DNA from: an uncultured Verrucomicrobiae bacterium | Lineage (GTDB): Bacteria; Verrucomicrobiota; Verrucomicrobiia; Palsa-1439 | Direction: 5' to 3' | DNA length: 64,000 nt | NCBI GenBank assembly: GCA_963812605.1 | Contig: CAWEWF010000005.1 | Span: forward strand, 32,001-96,000 | In this document: piece after piece, positions 4,701-43,585 of the stretch | Layout of the letters: every line of letters begins with the position of its first letter | Position numbering within the stretch: position 1 is the first letter of the stretch | Notes under the pieces: model-generated | What the model saw: the letters and a program-made list of their open reading frames with translations, nothing else | Told to the model about the DNA's origin: nothing | Databases searched by the model: none | Position numbers and translations under genes: made by a program

Positions 4701-4866
4701 GGTCAACCGCTGTTATTTTTGCGGAGCCGGTCCCTCCGGCTCTGGTACAAACTTCGGAACGTGCGAGCGGTGTTCGGCTGCGCGATTTGCAATCTCCCTC
4801 GAAAACCGCAAGCGGGACGTTCGCGCTACCAAGCGAAAACATTGCAGACCTAACAGGGATTGTTCC

Positions 4867-4892
4867 CCGAGTCGTAAACGCGGCTCCGGTTG
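4867..4892. repeat. 26-bp hairpin repeat, copy 1 (copy 2 at 37704-37729)
   Basis: CCGAGTCGTAAACGCGGCTCCGGTTG vs CCGAGTCGTGAACGCGGCTTGGGTTG, 23/26 identical. Confidence 0.6.
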
Positions 4893-4912
4893 ACTCGTTG
4901 GTGTTTGGTCCT

Positions 4913-35220: not shown

Positions 35221-35230
35221 GAGGAGGGTG

Positions 35231-37693
35231 ATGGAAATGAACAATTTTACGCCGCGGGCGCAACAGGTGCTCGCGTTGGCCCGCAAGGAAGCGGACCGGT
35301 TTAACCACAACTATGTGGGCACGGAGCATCTGCTGCTCGGTCTGATCAAGCTCGGCCAGGGCGTCGCGGTCAATGTTCTCCAGAAGATGGGCCTGGATCT
35401 CGAGACCGTCCGCATGGAAGTGGAGAAACAAATCGGCACCGGCCCCGAGACCAAGATGGTCGGCAACATTCCCTACACCCCTCGCGTAAAGAAAGTCCTC
35501 GCGCTGGCGCAGAAGGAAGCCAAGCAGCTCAATCACAATTACGTCGGCACCGAACACATCCTGCTCGGCCTGCTGCGCGAAGGCGAGGGCGCGGCCGCGC
35601 GCATCCTGAAATCGCTCGACGTTGATATCGAGCGGTGCCGCAATGAGATTCTCAAGGAACTCGATCCCAATTTCACCCCCAGCGAAGGCGGCGTCGAAGA
35701 AGGCGAAGCCAGCGGCAGCAAGAAGGAAATGAAGACGCCCGCGTTGCGCATGTTCGGACGGGACCTGACCGAATTGGCCCGCAAAGGCGAACTCGATCCC
35801 GTCGTGGGCCGCCAGAATGAAATCGAGCGGGTCATCCAGATCCTTTGCCGTCGCACGAAGAACAACCCGGTGTTGCTTGGCGAAGCGGGCGTGGGAAAGA
35901 CGGCCATCGTCGAGGGCCTGGCCCAGGAAGTTGCCAAGGGCAATGTCCCCGAGATTTTGCGCGATAAGCGGGTCGTCACCCTCGACCTGGCGTTGATGGT
36001 GGCGGGCACGAAGTACCGCGGCCAGTTCGAGGAGCGCATCAAGGCCGTCATGGACGAGATCAAGCGCTCGAAGAACGTCATCCTCTTTGTCGATGAGTTG
36101 CACACCATCGTTGGCGCCGGTTCGGCCGAGGGCGCGATGGACGCCAGCAACATCATCAAGCCCGCGCTCTCACGCGGAGAGTTGCAGGTGGTCGGCGCGA
36201 CCACGATGAACGAATATCGCAAGTACATCGAGAAGGACGCCGCGCTGGAGCGCCGTTTCCAAACGGTCATCGTCGAGCCGCCAACAGTCGACCAGACCGT
36301 CGAGATCCTGAAGGGTCTGCGCCCGAAGTACGAGGAACATCACCACGCCAAGTTCTCGGACGAAGCGCTGCTGGCGGCCTCGCGGCTTTCCGACCGCTAC
36401 ATCACCGGCCGATTTCTTCCGGACAAGGCAATTGATGTGGTGGACGAAGCGGGCGCCCGCGCCCGCATTCAATCGATGACGCGCCCGCCGAACATCCAGG
36501 ATTCGGAACGCGACATCGAAAAGATCAAGGAAGAGAAAGAGGCGGCGATCAAGGCCCAGGACTTCGAATTGGCGGCGAGCCTCCGTGACAAGGAAAAACA
36601 CGCGCGCGAGGGTTTGGAACAGACGCTGGCGGAATGGCGCCAGACGCGCGATGAAAAACAGATTGTCATTACCGAAGACGACATCATGCAGATTGTCGCC
36701 AAATGGACCGGCATCCCCCTGAGCCGCATGGAACAGAAGGACGCCGAGAAGTTGCTCCAAATGGAAGGGGAACTGCGCAAGACGGTGATCGGCCAGGACG
36801 AGGCGGTGATCGCGATCAGCAAAGCGCTGCGTCGCAGCCGCGCCGACCTCAAGGACCCGAACCGTCCCATCGGCTCCTTCGTATTCCTCGGGCCGACGGG
36901 CGTGGGCAAAACGTTGATGGCCCGCGCGCTGGCGGAATTCATGTTCGGCGACCAGGATGCGCTCATCCAGCTCGACATGAGCGAGTACATGGAGAAATTC
37001 AATGTCTCGCGGCTCGTGGGTTCGCCACCGGGCTATGTCGGCTACGAAGAGGGCGGTCAATTGACGGAACGCGTGCGTCGCCGTCCGTACTCGGTCGTGC
37101 TGTTCGACGAAATCGAGAAGGCGCATCCCGACGTCATGAATATGCTCTTGCAGATCCTGGAGGATGGTCACTTGACCGACTCGCTCGGCCGCAAGGTGGA
37201 CTTCCGCAATTGCGCCGTCATTATGACATCGAACATTGGCGCCGAGACAATTCGCAAGGCGGGTGAACTGGGTTTTGCTCCGGCCAAGGAAGAACACGTC
37301 TACGGCGATATGAAGGGCAAGCTCCTGGAGGAAGCCAAGCGCGCGTTCAAGCCCGAGTTCATGAACCGCCTCGACGATGTCATCGTCTTCCACACGCTGA
37401 CCAAGGCCGACATGGGCCAGATCGTCCATCTCGAAGTCGAGAAGGTCAAGAGCCGCCTCAAGTACAAGGACGTGGAGATCAGCCTCACGCCGGCGGCGAC
37501 GGACTTCCTGATCGAGAAGGGTTACGATCCGCAGTTTGGCGCGCGGCCCTTGCGTCGCGCCGTGGAAAAATACCTGCAGGACCCGCTGGCCGAGGAAATC
37601 CTGCGTGGCAGCATCAAGCCGAGCGAGACAATCGAAATTACGGTGGGTGACGGGAAACTGGACTTCAACCAGCTTGCCGCGAGCGCCAGCTAA
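35231..37693 (+). CDS. clpC: Clp protease ATP-binding subunit ClpC
   Basis: Two Clp-N repeats, [11 protein letters not shown] middle domain, [11 protein letters not shown] loop; GAGGAG SD. Confidence 0.96.
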
Positions 37694-37703
37694 CTGTCGG
37701 CGA

Positions 37704-37740
37704 CCGAGTCGTGAACGCGGCTTGGGTTGTTGTTTCGTTG
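37704..37740 (+). terminator. Probable clpC terminator (also repeat copy 2)
   Basis: CCGAGTCG/CGGCTTGG stem followed by a T-rich tail. Confidence 0.5.
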
Positions 37741-37778
37741 CCGTTTTGTCCTCACGGCTGCGCTCTGCAAACACTGGT

Positions 37779-40016
37779 TCACGGACCGACTGTTTGCAAG
37801 GAATTGAAGTAGACGTTATTACCCGAGCCGGCTCCGGCGTTGTTGTTGAACAAGGCGATGCTGTCCACCGTGCTGCCCAACGTGCCGGCCAGCGTGCCGC
37901 TGAGCGTGCTGTTGGTTGCGCCGCTCGCGTTATCGATCGTCACCAGGGTATAGGTGTTGGTGTTGTTCAGCGTGAACACCAGGTGCAAGCCCGTGCTCGT
38001 AAACGGTACGCCGAGGTTGTGCTGGCCGCCCGAGTCCACCACCTTGTAGCTGTTGCTGGAATCATTCCCGATATACAGAAACTGCAAGCGGGCACCCGTG
38101 GTATAGTTGGTCGGGCTGCTGGTGAAGTTGCCGTTGCGCAGGACAAAGCCCACTGTTCCACTCGCATTAACGTAGCCGTTGTCCATGTCAACCCCCAGTA
38201 TCCCGCCAGCCGCTAGCGAGTTGCTGAACGCCCGATACGCCACCGCGAGATTGGCGCTGTTAGCATACAGGCCCCACGAGGTGCCACCGATGTCGATATC
38301 ATTCGTCCCGTTCCCGTTATTCGTGGAACTGCCGATGAAGAAACCGTCATTGTTAAGGTTGGTACTGGTCTTCGTCAACGTCCACGAGCCGAAGCCCCTA
38401 CCGGCAGTGCTACCACTGACCCAGGCGTTGCTGTACACGCGGGCGATGGTGCTGTCAAAGGACACGTAGGGCACGGAGGGTCCCGGCTTCACGGACATGA
38501 CGACCCGATAGAACTGCTGGGCCACGTCCGGGCTGTTGGTTATATCGAATTCCATGATGCCGCCGGTGCCGATGAGACTCCCCGGAAGAGTCGACCATGT
38601 GTTCGTGCGAAGATCACCTGTGCTCTGCAAACTGATCGTGGCGTTACCAATGGAAGAGAACCGCAAGCGGAAGGAGTTGAGCAGACAATGGATATCACAG
38701 ATAGGGGTAAAAGAGTAGGTGGGTTGCTGTGATAGAGCTTGCAACTCGAACGCGCCAATATCGCTGCGGTCTCCCAGGCAGGGAGGCGTTTGGTTGAGCA
38801 AGTTGACCGGTCGCGGGAGGCCGCGCTGGTCCGTGGAGCAGTTGAAGCTGTAGCCTGCGTCAATGGCAGGGCTGCTATTTGAAAGCGCCATTGTAAAGGT
38901 TGGCCCGCCATAGTCACCGAGTGGGAGGAGGCCCGGATTCACCGGAAGTCCGGTAGAAGGGGTCGGGCCGACGATGTCGCAGGGTCCCGTCCATCCGTCG
39001 CTGCCGCTCCATTGGCCGATGAGGTTGTAACCTTGACTGCTAACGTCACCATCGACGTCCGGGCCCGGGCCCGGGCCAAAATCTGGCGGGCCAGTAATTG
39101 AAGTGTTGCCTGCGATGATGGAGTTTTGGACAGTTACTGAACCGCCCGCATAAAGACCGCCGCCGCCGCCACCGCCGAATTCGCCGCCGGCGTGATTTCC
39201 GCTGATGGTGCAGGCGGTCACCGTCAAATTACCGGTGTTGTTGATTGCTCCACCGGTATTGGCGCTGTTGTCACTGAATGTGCTCAAGGTCACCACCGTC
39301 AAACTATCACCGTAGATTGCTCCACCAGCACCATAATTCCCTGCGATGTTGCCACTGAACGTGCAGGCGGTCACCGTCAAATTACCGGCGTTGTAGATTG
39401 CTCCACCATTTTGAGACATCCCTGAACTGTTGCCACTGAACGTGCAGGCGGTCACCGTCAAATTACCGGCGTTGTAGATTGCTCCACCGTGAACGGCGCC
39501 GTTGCCACTGAACGTGCTCAAGGTCACCGTCAAATTACCACCGTTGTAGATTGCTCCACCCTGGGCATAGACCTGGTTGTTAGTGAACGTGCAGGCGGTC
39601 ACCGTCAAAGTACTGTTGAGGTCATTGGAGATCGCTCCACCAGAACCAGCGGAGCCGTTGGCAATTGTCAGGTCGGAGATGGTGACCGTTACTCCGGAAG
39701 CGATATTAAACACTTGGTACTGTTGGGTACCGTCGATTGTTAGTGAACTCGCGCCCGGTCCGGCGATGGTGAGGCTTTTGTTGATTGTGGGCAGTGTGCT
39801 GCCCAGCGTGATGGTGCCCGTGGCACTGATCGTGATCGTATCGCCAGGCGCTGCGTTATTCATGCAGAACCGCAACGAGCCGTTTTGCATGGGAACGCTC
39901 CCGGTGCCGGGATCGGCGGTGTTGTTGACGGTCCAGGTGGCCGCCTTCGCGGTGGTGGCAGCGAAGAACGCCACGTAACAGAACCCAGGCAAAAGTTTCC
40001 GCAGCAGTCTGTTCAT
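37779..40016 (-). CDS. Secreted beta-helix protein: GGAI/FxxN repeats, choice-of-anchor-Q-like domain, extra C-terminal module
   Basis: Signal peptide MNRLLRKLL...AKA; repeated GGAIYNAGNLTVTACTFSGN; GYNLIG...GGPTFT...SPAIDAG...DQRG...DIGAFE; AAGGA SD before 40016. Confidence 0.85.
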   Translation of the reverse strand: MNRLLRKLLPGFCYVAFFAATTAKAATWTVNNTADPGTGSVPMQNGSLRFCMNNAAPGDTITISATGTITLGSTLPTINKSLTIAGPGASSLTIDGTQQYQVFNIASGVTVTISDLTIANGSAGSGGAISNDLNSTLTVTACTFTNNQVYAQGGAIYNGGNLTVTLSTFSGNGAVHGGAIYNAGNLTVTACTFSGNSSGMSQNGGAIYNAGNLTVTACTFSGNIAGNYGAGGAIYGDSLTVVTLSTFSDNSANTGGAINNTGNLTVTACTISGNHAGGEFGGGGGGGLYAGGSVTVQNSIIAGNTSITGPPDFGPGPGPDVDGDVSSQGYNLIGQWSGSDGWTGPCDIVGPTPSTGLPVNPGLLPLGDYGGPTFTMALSNSSPAIDAGYSFNCSTDQRGLPRPVNLLNQTPPCLGDRSDIGAFELQALSQQPTYSFTPICDIHCLLNSFRLRFSSIGNATISLQSTGDLRTNTWSTLPGSLIGTGGIMEFDITNSPDVAQQFYRVVMSVKPGPSVPYVSFDSTIARVYSNAWVSGSTAGRGFGSWTLTKTSTNLNNDGFFIGSSTNNGNGTNDIDIGGTSWGLYANSANLAVAYRAFSNSLAAGGILGVDMDNGYVNASGTVGFVLRNGNFTSSPTNYTTGARLQFLYIGNDSSNSYKVVDSGGQHNLGVPFTSTGLHLVFTLNNTNTYTLVTIDNASGATNSTLSGTLAGTLGSTVDSIALFNNNAGAGSGNNVYFNSLQTVGP

Positions 40017-40309
40017 AAAGAATCCTTTCCATGTTGGGAGCGTCCCGGGCCAAGCCGGGGAAGGTGGGAGACAGAGTGATACTGCGTCCTGATGAGCCAC
40101 TGCTCGATGTGCCTGCGTGATGCGCCAAAAATCAACGTGCCCTGCGATTCTGGAGGGATACGGAGGAGCAAACGCAAACGAGACGCCAACCTCGCCATTT
40201 CTCCAAGCGGGTCGCAGTACAGCAAAACATCGCCCGACGGTCAAGATAATTCAGGCTTCCAGAGCATGTGGCCGCCGCGCCGGCCTCACCCGCTCAGAGG
40301 TTGTAGCAG

Positions 40310-40390
40310 GTATCCTCAGCATTGCCATCCTCGTCCAAGCCGGTCCGCTCAAGAACCAGCCCCACCCCACGTGCCCCGTCAGCCGGATAC
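40310..40390. repeat. Diverged structured intergenic motif, copy A
   Basis: 40334-40390 aligns to 42627-42682 (42/57 identical); both copies bounded by TATCC...GGATA. Confidence 0.65.
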
Positions 40391-40421
40391 AAAGAAAGAG
40401 CCCCGCAACCCTGCGGGGCTC
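40390..40421 (-). terminator. Rho-independent terminator of the 528-aa gene
   Basis: Perfect 10-bp stem GAGCCCCGCA/TGCGGGGCTC followed by TTTCTTT on the minus strand. Confidence 0.8.
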
Positions 40422-40456
40422 ATCCCGATGACGGACGCGATTAACGGGTCTGGACG

Positions 40457-42043
40457 CTAATTCTGCTGGTAGAGGTTGAGTGTTACAGTTGCAGTTTTGG
40501 TCTTTGTTCCAACTTCATACTTATACTTCATCTCCGTTTTTCCAAGCAGGGTGAAACCTGCAGGGGCCACAGAGTTAGTCGGCAGAGCTAGGTACGCACC
40601 TTGCGGCAGTACAGAACCCGCAGGTCCTTGTGGGCCTGTCGCTCCTGTCGCTCCCTGTGGACCCACAGGTCCTTGCGGGCCTACTAGAGCGGTCAGGTTT
40701 GTCGTCCCGAGTTGACCTTGGGAGTTCACGACGACCACTGCGCCGCCTGCCAAACTGACTCCACTAATCCCAGCGATAAACGTATTCGTGTGGGTGCCTT
40801 GTGTGCCGATACGAATGATGCCAGCTTCATCGGCGACACCTTGGTTGCCAATATCAATATTGTTTTCGCCCACAGTAATATTGGAACCAGCCGATGCTCC
40901 CAGTGCGATGTTGTTGCTGCCCGTCGTGTCTCCTGCGAGCGCCTCGAACCCGATGGCCGTGTTATTGTCGGAATCGTTGTTGTAAAGCGCGTGGAAGCCT
41001 TCGGCAGTGTTCGCAGAACCGTCGGCGTTGAGATACATCGCAAACGCGCCATCCGCCGTATTCTGGCCGCCCGTTATATTGAATTGGAGCGCCGCCGTGC
41101 CGGAGGCCGAGTTCTGGGTGCCGATCGTGTTGGAGAGGAGAGCGTTCTGGCCGATGGCGGTGTTCTGGCCGCCCGTCGTGTTGTCTTCGAGCGCATTTTC
41201 GCCGACGGCCGTGCTCCCGGAAGCCGTCGTGTTGGACTGGAGCGCCGAGATGCCAACGGCTGTGTTCTGCCCGCCCGATGTGTTGGATACGAGCGCCTCG
41301 TAGCCGATGGCCGTGTTGCTGCTGCCCGACGTGTTGTCTTCGAGCGCGTAGGCGCCGATGGCCGTGTTTTGGTCGCCATCGTTGTTGTAAAGCGCGTGGA
41401 AGCCTTCGGCAGTGTTCGCAGAACCGTCGACGTTGAGATACATCGCAAACGCGCCATCCGCCGTATTCTGGCCGCCGGCTATATTGAATTGGAGCGCCGC
41501 CGTGCCGGAGGCCGAGTTCTGGGTGCCGATCGTGTTGGAGAGGAGAGCGTTCTGGCCGATGGCGGTGTTCTGGCCGCCCGTCGTGTTGGACTGAAGCGCA
41601 TTTTCGCCGACGGCCGTGCTCCCGGAGGCCGTCGTGTTGGATTGGAGCGCCGAGATGCCAACGGCTGTGTTCTGCCCGCCCGATGTGTTGGATACGAGCG
41701 CCAAAGCGCCGACGGCCGTGTTGCTGCTGCCGGTCGTGTTGACGAGGAGTGCGTTGTAGCCGTCGGCGGTATTGTACCCGCCACTCGTGACGTGATTGAG
41801 CGCAGCGACACCTCCTGCGGTGTTCGTGCCGCCACTCAGTGTGAGGTTGCCAGCCAACTGGCCGACAAAGAAGTTTCCATTGTTATCGGCATCCAGCAGC
41901 AGAGCAGTTCCAGAGTAGATGATGTCGTTGGTCACCTGGGTGGCGGGCAGGTACAACGTCGTGAATGTTTGGCCGACGGCGATCGAAAGCGGCGCCGCGA
42001 CCAGCGCCAGTGTGATGACGAGTATTCCGAGCTTGGATTTCAT
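40457..42043 (-). CDS. Secreted beta-solenoid repeat (NTAxG..AL) adhesin-like protein with a short collagen segment
   Basis: Signal peptide; >20 fourteen-residue NTA(I/V)G repeats; GPQGPVGPQGATGATGPQGPAG; GAGGAG SD. Confidence 0.85.
   Translation of the reverse strand: MKSKLGILVITLALVAAPLSIAVGQTFTTLYLPATQVTNDIIYSGTALLLDADNNGNFFVGQLAGNLTLSGGTNTAGGVAALNHVTSGGYNTADGYNALLVNTTGSSNTAVGALALVSNTSGGQNTAVGISALQSNTTASGSTAVGENALQSNTTGGQNTAIGQNALLSNTIGTQNSASGTAALQFNIAGGQNTADGAFAMYLNVDGSANTAEGFHALYNNDGDQNTAIGAYALEDNTSGSSNTAIGYEALVSNTSGGQNTAVGISALQSNTTASGSTAVGENALEDNTTGGQNTAIGQNALLSNTIGTQNSASGTAALQFNITGGQNTADGAFAMYLNADGSANTAEGFHALYNNDSDNNTAIGFEALAGDTTGSNNIALGASAGSNITVGENNIDIGNQGVADEAGIIRIGTQGTHTNTFIAGISGVSLAGGAVVVVNSQGQLGTTNLTALVGPQGPVGPQGATGATGPQGPAGSVLPQGAYLALPTNSVAPAGFTLLGKTEMKYKYEVGTKTKTATVTLNLYQQN
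40975..41702. repeat. Near-identical intragenic duplication, 405-bp period
   Basis: TGTAAAGCGCGTGGAAGCC at 40981 and 41386; TGGAGCGCCGAGATGCC at 41238 and 41643. Confidence 0.9.
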
Positions 42044-42603
42044 TACGGTCTCCTCTTTGGGGTTTGTCTGGGGTTAGCCCAGACGTTGTTTGTTTGTGCG
42101 ATTCTGTGGAAGTGAAGCGCTCCCTGCTGGTTGGCCATGTCGCCGCCGGCCGCTTCGGGGACGGGCACATTGAAACCGATGCCCGAGCCGACCCGTTTTG
42201 CACAGTGGCCAGATATACCAATCGGGATTTCCCATTTGTCATCAAATTCAAGCGACGAATCTTCCTGGTCGGTTCTTCTCTGGAAAAAGGCAGTGGGGAA
42301 CCGTCCCGGCCGCAAGACCAGTGCGATAGCCCGGTGGCATGCGCCGATTCAAAAAGATTAGCGGCTGGGCGTGGAGATATCGTCGCGTGTGGATGAACCG
42401 CTTTCCGGTGCGACCCGCAAGATTCGTCGAACGTCAATGTGACCTGAGATTCTGGAAGAGCAAGAAGGAGGGAAACGCGAACGCGACGCCAGCCTCAACC
42501 TGTCACCAGCGAAGAGCAGACAAAAAAACGACCGAAATGTCCAGCAAATTCAAGGGTTTCAAGGCGATGATGATTGCAGTGTTGTAATCTTCTAGTAAGG
42601 CTT

Positions 42604-42682
42604 TATCCGACATCTACGTACGGCTCTCCAAGCCGTCCGCTCAGGAGCTAATCTTAATCTGCGCGCTCCGTCACCCGGATAC
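42604..42682. repeat. Diverged structured intergenic motif, copy B
   Basis: Stems TATCCG/CGGATA, ACGGCT/AGCCGT and GGAGC/GCTCC form a three-way junction. Confidence 0.65.
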
Positions 42683-42694
42683 GTTGTTTCATCC

Positions 42695-42734
42695 AAGGCC
42701 GTCCCGGAGAAGTCCGGGGCGGCTTCTGGTTTTT
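42695..42734 (+). terminator. Rho-independent terminator with no upstream plus-strand gene
   Basis: GCCGTCCCGGA-GAAG-TCCGGGGCGGC followed by TTCTGGTTTTT. Confidence 0.7.
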
Positions 42735-42762
42735 GGGCGGGGGGCCGACGATCACGACGGGC

Positions 42763-42791
42763 TTGCAACAATCTGCGCGCTTCCCTATGCT
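42763..42791 (+). promoter_or_regulatory. sigma70 promoter of mlaE (leaderless)
   Basis: TTGCAA-17nt-TATGCT, 8 nt before ATG 42800. Confidence 0.65.
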
Positions 42792-42799
42792 CACGCGAC

Positions 42800-43585
42800 A
42801 TGACCGAGGCGCTTGCAAGTTTTCGAGAGTTCGTGATCGGCCAGCTTAACCAGCTGGGCGCGATGCTGCTGCTCCTGCTCGACATTCTCAAGACGGCCGT
42901 TACGAAGCGACCGCGCTGGAAGGAAATGCTCGAGCAAATCTACAAGATCGGCTGGCAATCCCAGGTGGTCGTGGTGATCACCGGCGCGTTCACGGGAATG
43001 GTGTTTGCCGATCAAATCTACACCCAGTTTCACAAGGTGAAGATGGATACGGCGGTCGGCCCGGTCATCAGCGTGGCCATGACCCGCGAACTGGCCCCGG
43101 TCTTGACGGCTTTGATGGTCGCGGGTCGCGTGGGCGCGGCAATCGCGGCGGAACTGGGCACGATGAAAGTGACCGAGCAATTGGATGCCCTCCGCACGGT
43201 GGGAACGGCGCCGGTGGACTATTTGGCCGTGCCGCGGTTCATCGCCCTGCTGCTGGCGCTGCCGCTGCTCACGGCCGAGGCGATGTTCTTCGGCATTTTC
43301 AGCGGGTATTTGGTCGGGGTGGACATGCTGGGGATCGACCAGGCGTACTTTTTGACGAACATGTACAAGTTTACGAGCGCCAAGGATGTGGTTAGCGGCC
43401 TGATCAAGTCCGTCTTCTTCGCGGTCTTCATCGGGCTGATTTCCTGTTACAAGGGTTTCCAGGCGGGTGAAGGGGCGGAAGGCGTCGGGCGCGCCACGAC
43501 GCAGGCCGTCGTGGTGTCTTCGCTGACGGTTCTCATCGCCAATTTTTTCATTGCGGTGCTGTTCAACGCTATCATCCCCCCATGA
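42800..43585 (+). CDS. mlaE: MlaE-family ABC permease
   Basis: RELAPVLTALMVAGRVGAAIAAELGTMKVTEQLDAL; GAEGVGRATT. Confidence 0.93.
   Translation: MTEALASFREFVIGQLNQLGAMLLLLLDILKTAVTKRPRWKEMLEQIYKIGWQSQVVVVITGAFTGMVFADQIYTQFHKVKMDTAVGPVISVAMTRELAPVLTALMVAGRVGAAIAAELGTMKVTEQLDALRTVGTAPVDYLAVPRFIALLLALPLLTAEAMFFGIFSGYLVGVDMLGIDQAYFLTNMYKFTSAKDVVSGLIKSVFFAVFIGLISCYKGFQAGEGAEGVGRATTQAVVVSSLTVLIANFFIAVLFNAIIPP

Follow-up and report, generated by a model that had tools for sequence, protein, structure and literature searches.

Features of the locus

A 64,000 nt stretch of the genome of an uncultured Verrucomicrobiae bacterium (GCA_963812605.1, contig CAWEWF010000005.1, positions 32,001 to 96,000; here called the window) contains two copies, A and B, of a non-coding motif of about 80 nt, named M1. 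Both copies lie in a 4,989 bp insertion between a clpC-like gene and mlaE, together with the genes for an adhesin-like protein and an exported beta-helix protein. The window's own genome, of 4.17 Mb, is referred to as G000. The features of the locus, in window coordinates, are as follows.

35228..37693, plus strand: clpC/clpA-type AAA+ chaperone gene, left flank (Pfam Clp_N, AAA, AAA_2, ClpB_D2-small, UVR)
37694..42682, no strand: lineage-specific insertion, 4,989 bp; that site is empty in 10 relatives
37680..37789, plus strand: E1 palindromic intergenic repeat, the insertion's other end (nhmmer E 3.3e-24)
37779..40016, minus strand: exported beta-helix protein gene, 745 amino acids from the ATG at 40016 (Beta_helix and Chlam_PMP repeat matches)
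40079..40265, minus strand: leader-like block below copy A, with TGGCGTCTCGTTTGCG and CCAGAATCGCAGGGCAC (pairwise and six-locus alignments)
40308..40391, minus strand: M1 copy A (iterated nhmmer E 3.2e-25; Infernal C5:72304-72393, E 1.1e-21)
40398..40421, minus strand: intrinsic terminator of the adhesin-like gene, a 10 bp stem then TTTCTTT
40457..42043, minus strand: adhesin-like gene, 528 amino acids (signal peptide, NTAxG-type repeats, collagen-like GPQG stretch)
42378..42551, minus strand: leader-like block below copy B, aligning with the block below copy A
42604..42683, minus strand: M1 copy B (iterated nhmmer E 2.5e-20; Infernal G000:C5:74599-74686, E 4.4e-17)
42696..42735, plus strand: terminator of the clpC-like gene, parted from the gene by the insertion; the hairpin beside copy B
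42800..43585, plus strand: mlaE permease gene, right flank (Pfam MlaE, E 8.9e-78)

Read on the minus strand, the insertion is made up of M1 copy B, a leader-like block, the adhesin-like gene and its terminator, followed by M1 copy A, the other leader-like block, the beta-helix gene and E1. Copy A is the head of the second unit and begins right after the T-run of the adhesin-like gene's terminator. An initial annotation, made from the DNA letters alone, placed a secreted-protein gene downstream of each copy on the minus strand, and the distances hold at 294 nt (copy A to the ATG at 40016) and 562 nt (copy B to the ATG at 42043). It also described a strong hairpin abutting each copy. These hairpins are present, at 40398-40421 (minus strand) and 42696-42725 (plus strand), but both are terminators of other genes. 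The Pfam Collagen match of the adhesin-like protein is weak (E 0.0018), and paralogues of its gene are found in relatives at 65-70% DNA identity.

The segment carrying M1 is an insertion

The window segment is an insertion that separates the clpC-like gene from its own terminator. With mlaE as the anchor, the locus was fetched from 16 other genomes of the genus. In 10 of these the DNA matching the window up to 37693 and from 42683 onwards lies 3-26 nt apart, compared to 4,989 nt in G000; in the other six the second flank is outside the stretch covered. No M1 match is found in any of the 16 mlaE loci. The right joint reads ...CCGGATACG/TTGTTTCATCC, i.e. ...GGATACG/TTGTTTCA, with the first base of M1 at 42683/42682. 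TTGTTTCA and the hairpin next to it are homologous to the clpC terminator of the relatives, where this hairpin is found approximately 10-25 nt behind the stop codon of the clpC-like gene. The hairpin beside copy B is therefore the displaced terminator and the joint falls at the first base of M1. The whole element of about 5 kb was not found elsewhere in 45 genomes of the family, in which there are only paralogue-level gene pieces and short repeats.

M1 is a multi-copy family

The similarity of copies A and B is far beyond chance. Upon recounting, 40334-40390 and 42627-42682 are identical in 42 of 57 columns, with one 1 nt gap and 14 substitutions, of which 12 are transitions and 2 transversions, as the initial annotation had reported. 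The excess of transitions is weaker in the family as a whole than in this pair, with 554 transitions and 371 transversions from the consensus among 68 copies. TATCC and GGATA are present in both copies as described, at 40311-40315/40385-40389 (79 nt) and 42604-42608/42677-42681 (78 nt). This closure is private to copies A and B within the family, however, and is not a shared feature of M1.

A two-copy nhmmer profile recovers both window copies from the 4.17 Mb genome (E 2.6e-22 and 8.3e-22). Iterated nhmmer finds eight M1 copies in G000 at E <= 4e-16, six of them in addition to A and B, and the next matches have E 0.28 or worse. A sequence-only Infernal model was made from these eight copies and 101 genomes were searched using Infernal's stricter filters. 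Among the matches listed, 28 of the 101 genomes have M1, G000 included. Every one of the 17 further genomes sampled from the genus carries it, at 1-21 matches per genome, as do 8 genomes from other genera of the same family; outside the family there are two matches, both weak.

A strict M1 core pattern is contained in 25 metagenome contigs, and its carriers are uncultured Verrucomicrobiae metagenome-assembled genomes (MAGs) from soil and peat. The sole pattern match outside Verrucomicrobia-labelled records is on a 1.6 kb contig (L092) filed as an Acidobacteriaceae MAG; this contig is short and mis-binning is therefore likelier than true presence. A phage origin was rejected, there being no match to two M1 patterns among viral contigs. 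On a thin literature search, the motif was not found described in print.

The family alignment contains 68 non-redundant copies, with some tests made on 65 of these. Read on the minus strand of the window, M1 starts sharply at CGTATCC, continues for about 80 nt and ends ...GCTGAGGCC. Mean pairwise identity is 72% (range 49-100%) within M1 and 30% in the 13 columns upstream, therefore the 5' edge is sharp. Conservation along M1 is uneven, with 18 columns at least 90% conserved (65 copies), and the motif strand is G-rich. Part-copies consisting of the 5' 40-55 nt are frequent. Nearby pairs of M1 are mostly in direct orientation.

Folding and coding potential of M1

M1 has no conserved fold. The initial annotation had suggested a structured RNA on the basis of a three-way junction in copy B, and this junction is indeed the minimum free energy structure of copy B on the plus strand (-22.8 kcal/mol, z -2.0, 7 of 200 shuffles as good); on the minus strand z is -1.27. 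Copy A does not keep an equivalent fold, having z +0.47 on the plus strand and z -0.66, with another fold, on the minus strand. Across 65 copies the 17 pairs of the proposed structure are formed in 53.5% of cells, compared to 53.4 +/- 0.5% after shuffling, and 205 of 500 shuffles reach the observed value. RNAalifold predicts zero pairs on either strand, whether 65 or 68 copies are used. The annotation had pointed to further copies and to covariation as what would bear on its proposal: further copies are many, but covariation is absent.

Taken singly, the closing helix can pair in 44.6% of cells and ACGGCT/AGCCGT in 36.9%, while GGAGC/GGUUCC alone is widely possible, at 85.9%. The last of these joins two conserved words, and two-sided changes are seen in 0, 3, 0, 0 and 1 cells over its five pairs. 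The earlier statement that no known RNA family is recognisable holds. A search of window positions 39800-43000 against Rfam at E <= 10 returned nine chance-level matches, the best with 17.9 bits against a gathering threshold of 37, and 18 related loci gave no match at E <= 0.1.

Codon periodicity is absent, as had been reported, the mean column information per phase being 1.18, 1.16 and 1.24 in the 68 copies. A coding sequence or leader peptide was rejected on this ground and others: the second conserved block is in different frames in copies A and B, and there are 1-2 nt indels in single copies. An open frame spans the opposite strand of copies A and B. A mini open reading frame (ORF) led by ATG at the 3' end of M1 was likewise rejected, its ATG being replaced in one module class and its frame shifted in another.

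Genes and modules downstream of M1

M1 is tied to the gene downstream. It is located 55-700 nt upstream of the next gene, mostly co-oriented with it, and often starts 1-22 nt past the stop codon of the gene upstream. By a crude gene caller, the right neighbour is co-oriented in 14 of 18 called cases and the left in 7 of 17 at 21 distinct metagenome loci; the genome sample gives 47 of 60 on the right and 47 of 64 on the left.

The genes behind M1 are mutually unrelated. They include those for glycoside hydrolases (GH28), kumamolisin-type peptidases, MipA, PEP-CTERM, LamG, BACON and pilin-like proteins, VanZ and glycosyltransferases, and also for Ser/Thr kinases, a response regulator, an extracytoplasmic function (ECF) sigma factor and a MacAB-type pump. 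Signal-peptide- or transmembrane-like starts are found in 50 of 68 downstream ORFs; the choice of ORF favoured such starts, therefore this is no evidence of enrichment. The initial annotation stands in that M1 is an undescribed non-coding multi-copy motif that mostly precedes, in the same orientation, genes whose products are exported or belong to the envelope, but not in that it is a structured RNA. Two transposases were seen, of the IS256 and IS110 families, which belong to ordinary insertion sequence (IS) copies on the upstream side of M1.

Many unrelated exported proteins encoded near M1 (the C14 and C8 loci of G000, L050, L073 and L100) have a similar C-terminal tail, ...FYRV/I-x-V/I-x-x-P, with examples being KFYRVYISLP, EFYRIQISVP and RYYRVRVLLP. 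The tail could be the last strand of a domain or a sorting signal.

Alternative conserved modules, of three classes, follow M1. The class 1 module is about 130 nt long. At a constant 30-34 nt from M1 it has a site resembling an extended -10 promoter, TTGTCA-N16-TGnTAnnnT, and a hairpin comes just before its ribosome-binding site. This promoter-like pattern is found downstream of M1 on the forward strand in 7 of 68 cases, compared to 2 downstream on the reverse strand and 1 and 2 upstream on the forward and reverse strands. Carriers of the class 1 module, which is 0-130 nt after M1, include L020, L023, L051, L057, L062, L077 and L081. Its hairpin reads CCGCGA...TCGCGG (CAACA/TGTTG in L057), has no Rfam match and, in L077, is followed after about 20 nt by a ribosome-binding site and a gene with a signal peptide. 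It looks like a real RNA structure and a better candidate for a 5' untranslated region RNA element than M1.

The second module class has a short GC hairpin. Members of the third, which includes copies A and B, have about 250 nt in common, leader-like block included. Many copies of this block are present in relatives at 76-89% identity, some of them away from M1. The block has a 7 nt direct repeat with an 11 nt period (GCGTCTC-GTTT-GCGTYTC), readable also as a weak TGGC-N8-TTGC of sigma-54 type, plus the word CCAGAATCNCAGGGCAC. It may be an operator, a promoter or a 5' untranslated region.

A role for M1 as a sigma-54 enhancer was rejected: at least 10 of 12 consensus positions of a downstream TGGCAC-N5-TTGCW are matched in 2 of 68 cases, the same as on the reverse strand, and copies A and B match at 8 of 12. 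Also set aside was an ECF-type promoter on the opposite strand (GGAACC ... CGTC), whose spacing, as read from the consensus, is 13 or 20 nt rather than 16-17 nt, and which would fire into the upstream gene. No housekeeping promoter was seen by eye in M1 or just upstream of it, and a scan found no sigma-70-type sites in 39900-42900.

Other joints and empty sites

Besides the window, five comparisons put a joint at the first base of M1 or no more than 7 nt from it. On contig C14 of G000, a 4.19 kb segment between two inverted M1 copies is without counterpart in four out of five genomes compared (G012, G006, G007 and G009), while the fifth, G005, has other DNA at that site. One of the C14 joints abuts the first base of M1 and the other is within 7 nt. 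A 1.84 kb unit of G015, missing from G011, consists of an M1 part-copy, a leader and one adhesin-like gene; its M1 end is 7 nt from the flank homology and it ends 9 nt past the stop codon. Elsewhere these two genomes share an upstream gene, 97% identical as far as M1, where different M1 copies and genes begin. The divergent stretch is 5.9 kb in G015 and 3.45 kb in G011, and similarity returns at an E1 repeat. Two G010 contigs are 99% identical over about 3 kb from the first bases of M1 and are unrelated before it, which may reflect either a duplication or variation between strains in this MAG. L084 has its M1 fused into an E1 that is truncated.

All eight G000 copies are in segments without synteny in the five relatives compared. 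Two other M1 copies of G015 are kept in place in G011, therefore not every copy is recent. Orthologous copies are about 75% alike, and the intergenic DNA adjacent to them is unalignable.

At L100:2996-9100 and L101 (G015:C19 and G011:C76), species about 96% identical in the flanks have different cassettes in one place, between a gene for a 250 amino acid membrane protein and a histidine kinase / NtrC-type regulator pair. One cassette has three genes, including one for a tail-fibre-like protein with a Peptidase_S74 chaperone domain, and the other has a single gene of 1,003 amino acids. Synteny with relatives ends, at about 168.8 kb of C8, just before the gene for a truncated phage-type integrase (L002:2046-2960, G000 C8:167852-168766). 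This gene abuts a 91 nt stretch, 86% identical in relatives and tRNA-like by position, and one G000 copy of M1 is 465 nt beyond it.

The E1 repeat

E1 is approximately 95-120 nt long, with an 11 bp outer stem (GAGCGCAGCCG / CGGCTGCGCTC), an inner hairpin (GTTCAC-CGAGTC-GTGAAC) and a T-rich arm, and may be REP-like. In the copy at the insertion, the outer arm either is cut short or overlaps the stop codon of the clpC-like gene. About 12 copies or part-copies are present in G000, with sites at C5:295745, C10:28647, C6:207002, C8:53549, C1:585001, C14:846624 and C14:92780 and a part-copy in the window near 4856-4912; copies 86-95% identical are found in many relatives. E1 was rejected as a regular partner end of M1. 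Of the approximately 12 in G000, the one at the window insertion alone is near an M1.

A proposed role for M1

The reading favoured here is tentative, with a probability of roughly 0.4. It is that M1 would be a protein-bound end, or boundary, where non-autonomous gene cassettes join the chromosome by means of an enzyme supplied in trans, and that it perhaps has a second role as a regulatory platform upstream of the cassette genes. M1 would then be a non-coding module of about 80 bp, acting as double-stranded DNA, that heads accessory gene cassettes at their outer end, away from the promoter. A cassette would consist of M1, one of several alternative promoter/leader modules and between one and three genes, most of them encoding exported or envelope proteins, and the 4,989 bp insertion would hold two of these in tandem. 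The joining enzyme may be a recombinase or a transposase. That a protein binds M1, that M1 is the joining site and not a passenger, and which enzyme acts there are inferences. The initial annotation had also offered a regulator-binding array. Read as a protein-binding DNA array, this still agrees with the data. That the motif is the end of inserted DNA had escaped the annotation.

Several observations weigh against a joining site. The other end of the inserted segments varies: in the window it is E1, in G015 a point 9 nt past a stop codon, and on C14 another M1. At the left joint of the window insertion nhmmer finds no M1-like inverted end even at E <= 1000. There is no consistent target-site duplication: a 4 bp CTAC is present at both C14 ends, which could be chance, there is none in G015, and TTGTTT flanks the window insert only when part of E1 is counted as flank. 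A palindromic recombinase core (arm-spacer-arm) was rejected, with 1 in 87 copies having one (L151, 12-6-12) and scores matching those of controls. No transposase or integrase is among the downstream ORFs (63 first ORFs in genomes, 31 in the metagenome). About one fifth of the copies have no co-oriented gene behind them, and a minority face a convergent gene or none, such as the second M1 after the VanZ gene in L050. A by-eye internal direct repeat in M1 is a possible pair of binding sub-sites. The exact-looking joints could partly reflect deletion of junk DNA up to the edge of a functional regulatory element, and several of them abut stop codons, where alignment boundaries fall anyway. Fully resolved joints are few, the genomes are metagenome-assembled and mutually related, and the gene calls come from a crude codon-usage caller.

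With regard to the L151 copy, an IS256-family IS at L151:250-1660 (Mutator transposase, E 8.8e-112) ends beside a 13 nt inverted M1 terminus. This terminus faces a full M1 across 6 nt, generating the 12-6-12 palindrome, or one of 24 nt if read as 11-2-11.

The main rival, considered somewhat unlikely, is that M1 is purely regulatory, an array of sites (upstream activating sequence) distal to the promoter and bound by the transcription factor of an exported-protein regulon. It would travel with exchanged genes as their outermost functional control part, and quick deletion of the adjoining DNA would make the joints look exact. The position of M1 55-700 nt upstream of mostly co-oriented genes is consistent with this, as are the fixed distance of 30-34 nt to the class 1 promoter-like site (7 of 68, compared to 2, 1 and 2 in controls), the survival of orthologous M1 at about 75% identity amid unalignable intergenic DNA, and the theme of the downstream genes (GH28, kumamolisin-type peptidases, MipA, PEP-CTERM, LamG, BACON, pilin-like). 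However, the G010 stretch, if a recent duplication, already begins at the first bases of M1, and at 99% identity there would have been no time for trimming. In addition, copies such as that after the VanZ gene in L050 precede convergent genes or none, the kinases, ECF sigma factor and MacAB-type pump depart from the theme, a downstream sigma-54 promoter is rare (2 of 68 at 10 or more of 12 positions), and no dyad or repeat typical of a known regulator family has been established. It is quite unlikely that M1 is a decaying selfish or hitch-hiking repeat without present function, one module of a BIME- or BOX-like mosaic system. Such a repeat would be multi-copy (1-21 matches per genome among those listed), mosaic with alternative neighbour modules, frequent as 5' 40-55 nt part-copies, located in accessory DNA and without a co-oriented gene in some 20% of cases, all of which apply to M1. 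Against this are the unevenness of its conservation, with 18 columns at or above 90%, its persistence at orthologous positions where the neighbouring intergenic DNA fails to align, and the strong link of its orientation to the downstream gene, 14 of 18 in the metagenome sample.

Two further alternatives would have M1 act as RNA. That it does so unfolded, as a linear leader or small RNA segment binding a protein or another RNA, is improbable. About 80 nt are conserved with a strand bias and the motif strand is G-rich. The GGAGC with GGUUCC-type pairing is possible in 85.9% of cells on the motif strand only, because it uses G-U, and by eye a small hairpin with some compensating changes covers the 3' end of M1 in one module class. 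Many copies, however, leave no room for a promoter ahead of them: at least 12 of 68 begin 1-22 nt past the stop codon of the gene before, and copy A is directly behind a terminator T-run. The promoter-like modules are downstream of M1. The 85.9% helix is nearly without two-sided changes, and RNAalifold finds nothing. A three-way-junction cis-regulatory RNA or riboswitch-like element is highly improbable. Copy B takes the junction as its minimum-energy fold (z -2.0 on the plus and -1.27 on the minus strand), but copy A folds otherwise, pairing across the family is no better than with shuffled partners (53.5 compared to 53.4%), and there is neither a consensus structure nor an Rfam match. A tempting miscall is thereby put right: a conserved 80 nt motif that folds neatly in one copy is not a riboswitch-like RNA.

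Comparison with known systems

The nearest described concept is that of putative mobile promoters (PMPs), defined by at least 80% identity over at least 50 nt in the window from -150 to -50, whose way of moving is stated as unknown (Nijveen, Matus-Garcia & van Passel 2012, PMC3575422). Like M1, these are homologous non-coding DNA upstream of unrelated genes, within and between genomes, with no Rfam match. M1 differs in averaging 72% identity, in being mostly further upstream than -150 to -50, and in being the distal module of a mosaic, whose joint with the chromosome has been mapped to its first base.

Integron cassettes are small tandem gene units with one conserved attC of 60-140 bp each, 3' of the ORF, and clusters of attC without an integrase exist. 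The units headed by M1 resemble them in being tandem, tight by stop codons and swapped in content between close relatives. Unlike attC, M1 has no inverted-repeat hairpin (R''-L''/L'-R') and no consensus pairing. It is on the 5' side of genes, each unit has its own promoter-like module, and the copies are scattered instead of forming long arrays. Among the downstream ORFs scanned there is no integron-type integrase; one truncated integrase, of phage type, is 465 nt upstream of one G000 copy.

In contrast to a transposon with terminal inverted repeats (TIRs) or a miniature inverted-repeat transposable element, the window insertion has M1 at one end alone, although an inverted pair of M1 bounds the C14 insert. 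Mosaic intergenic repeats named in PMC3575422 are enterobacterial BIMEs/REP, pneumococcal BOX and Neisseria Correia elements. M1 is like the BIME- and BOX-type mosaics in being dispersed, modular, multi-copy and intergenic. BIME/REP, BOX and Correia units either form palindromes or end in inverted repeats; they can contain promoters and are found at the boundaries of genes. M1 is without a palindrome or TIRs, whereas the neighbouring E1 is palindromic. M1 follows the downstream gene in orientation, and kilobase-sized inserted gene units have it at one end.

One-ended mobilisation is found with IS91/ISCR- or ISEcp1-type elements, and the Borrelia vsp/vlp cassettes have upstream and downstream homology sequences. 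Shared with M1 are one specific conserved end with a variable other end, and the exchange of surface-protein genes as units. These systems have a transposase on board or homology of high identity; M1 units carry no transposase and M1 is about 72% alike.

Implications

A bolder proposal, which at present must be considered unlikely, is that M1 is the recognition end of an undescribed one-ended cassette-exchange system shuffling exported- and surface-protein genes in soil and peat Verrucomicrobiae. Such a system would be integron-like in outcome but of different design, with a linear, hairpin-free site at the 5' head, a promoter of its own for each unit and an enzyme acting in trans from elsewhere in the genome.

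On the more modest reading, M1 would be regulatory DNA travelling with genes, and would provide a worked example of mobile-promoter modules (PMC3575422) with mapped insertion joints. Were M1 a joining site, genes that encode surface and secreted proteins and bring their promoters along would be moved without an on-board transposase in a widespread uncultured lineage of soil and peat, and M1 would be a sequence tag by which such cassettes could be found in metagenomes.

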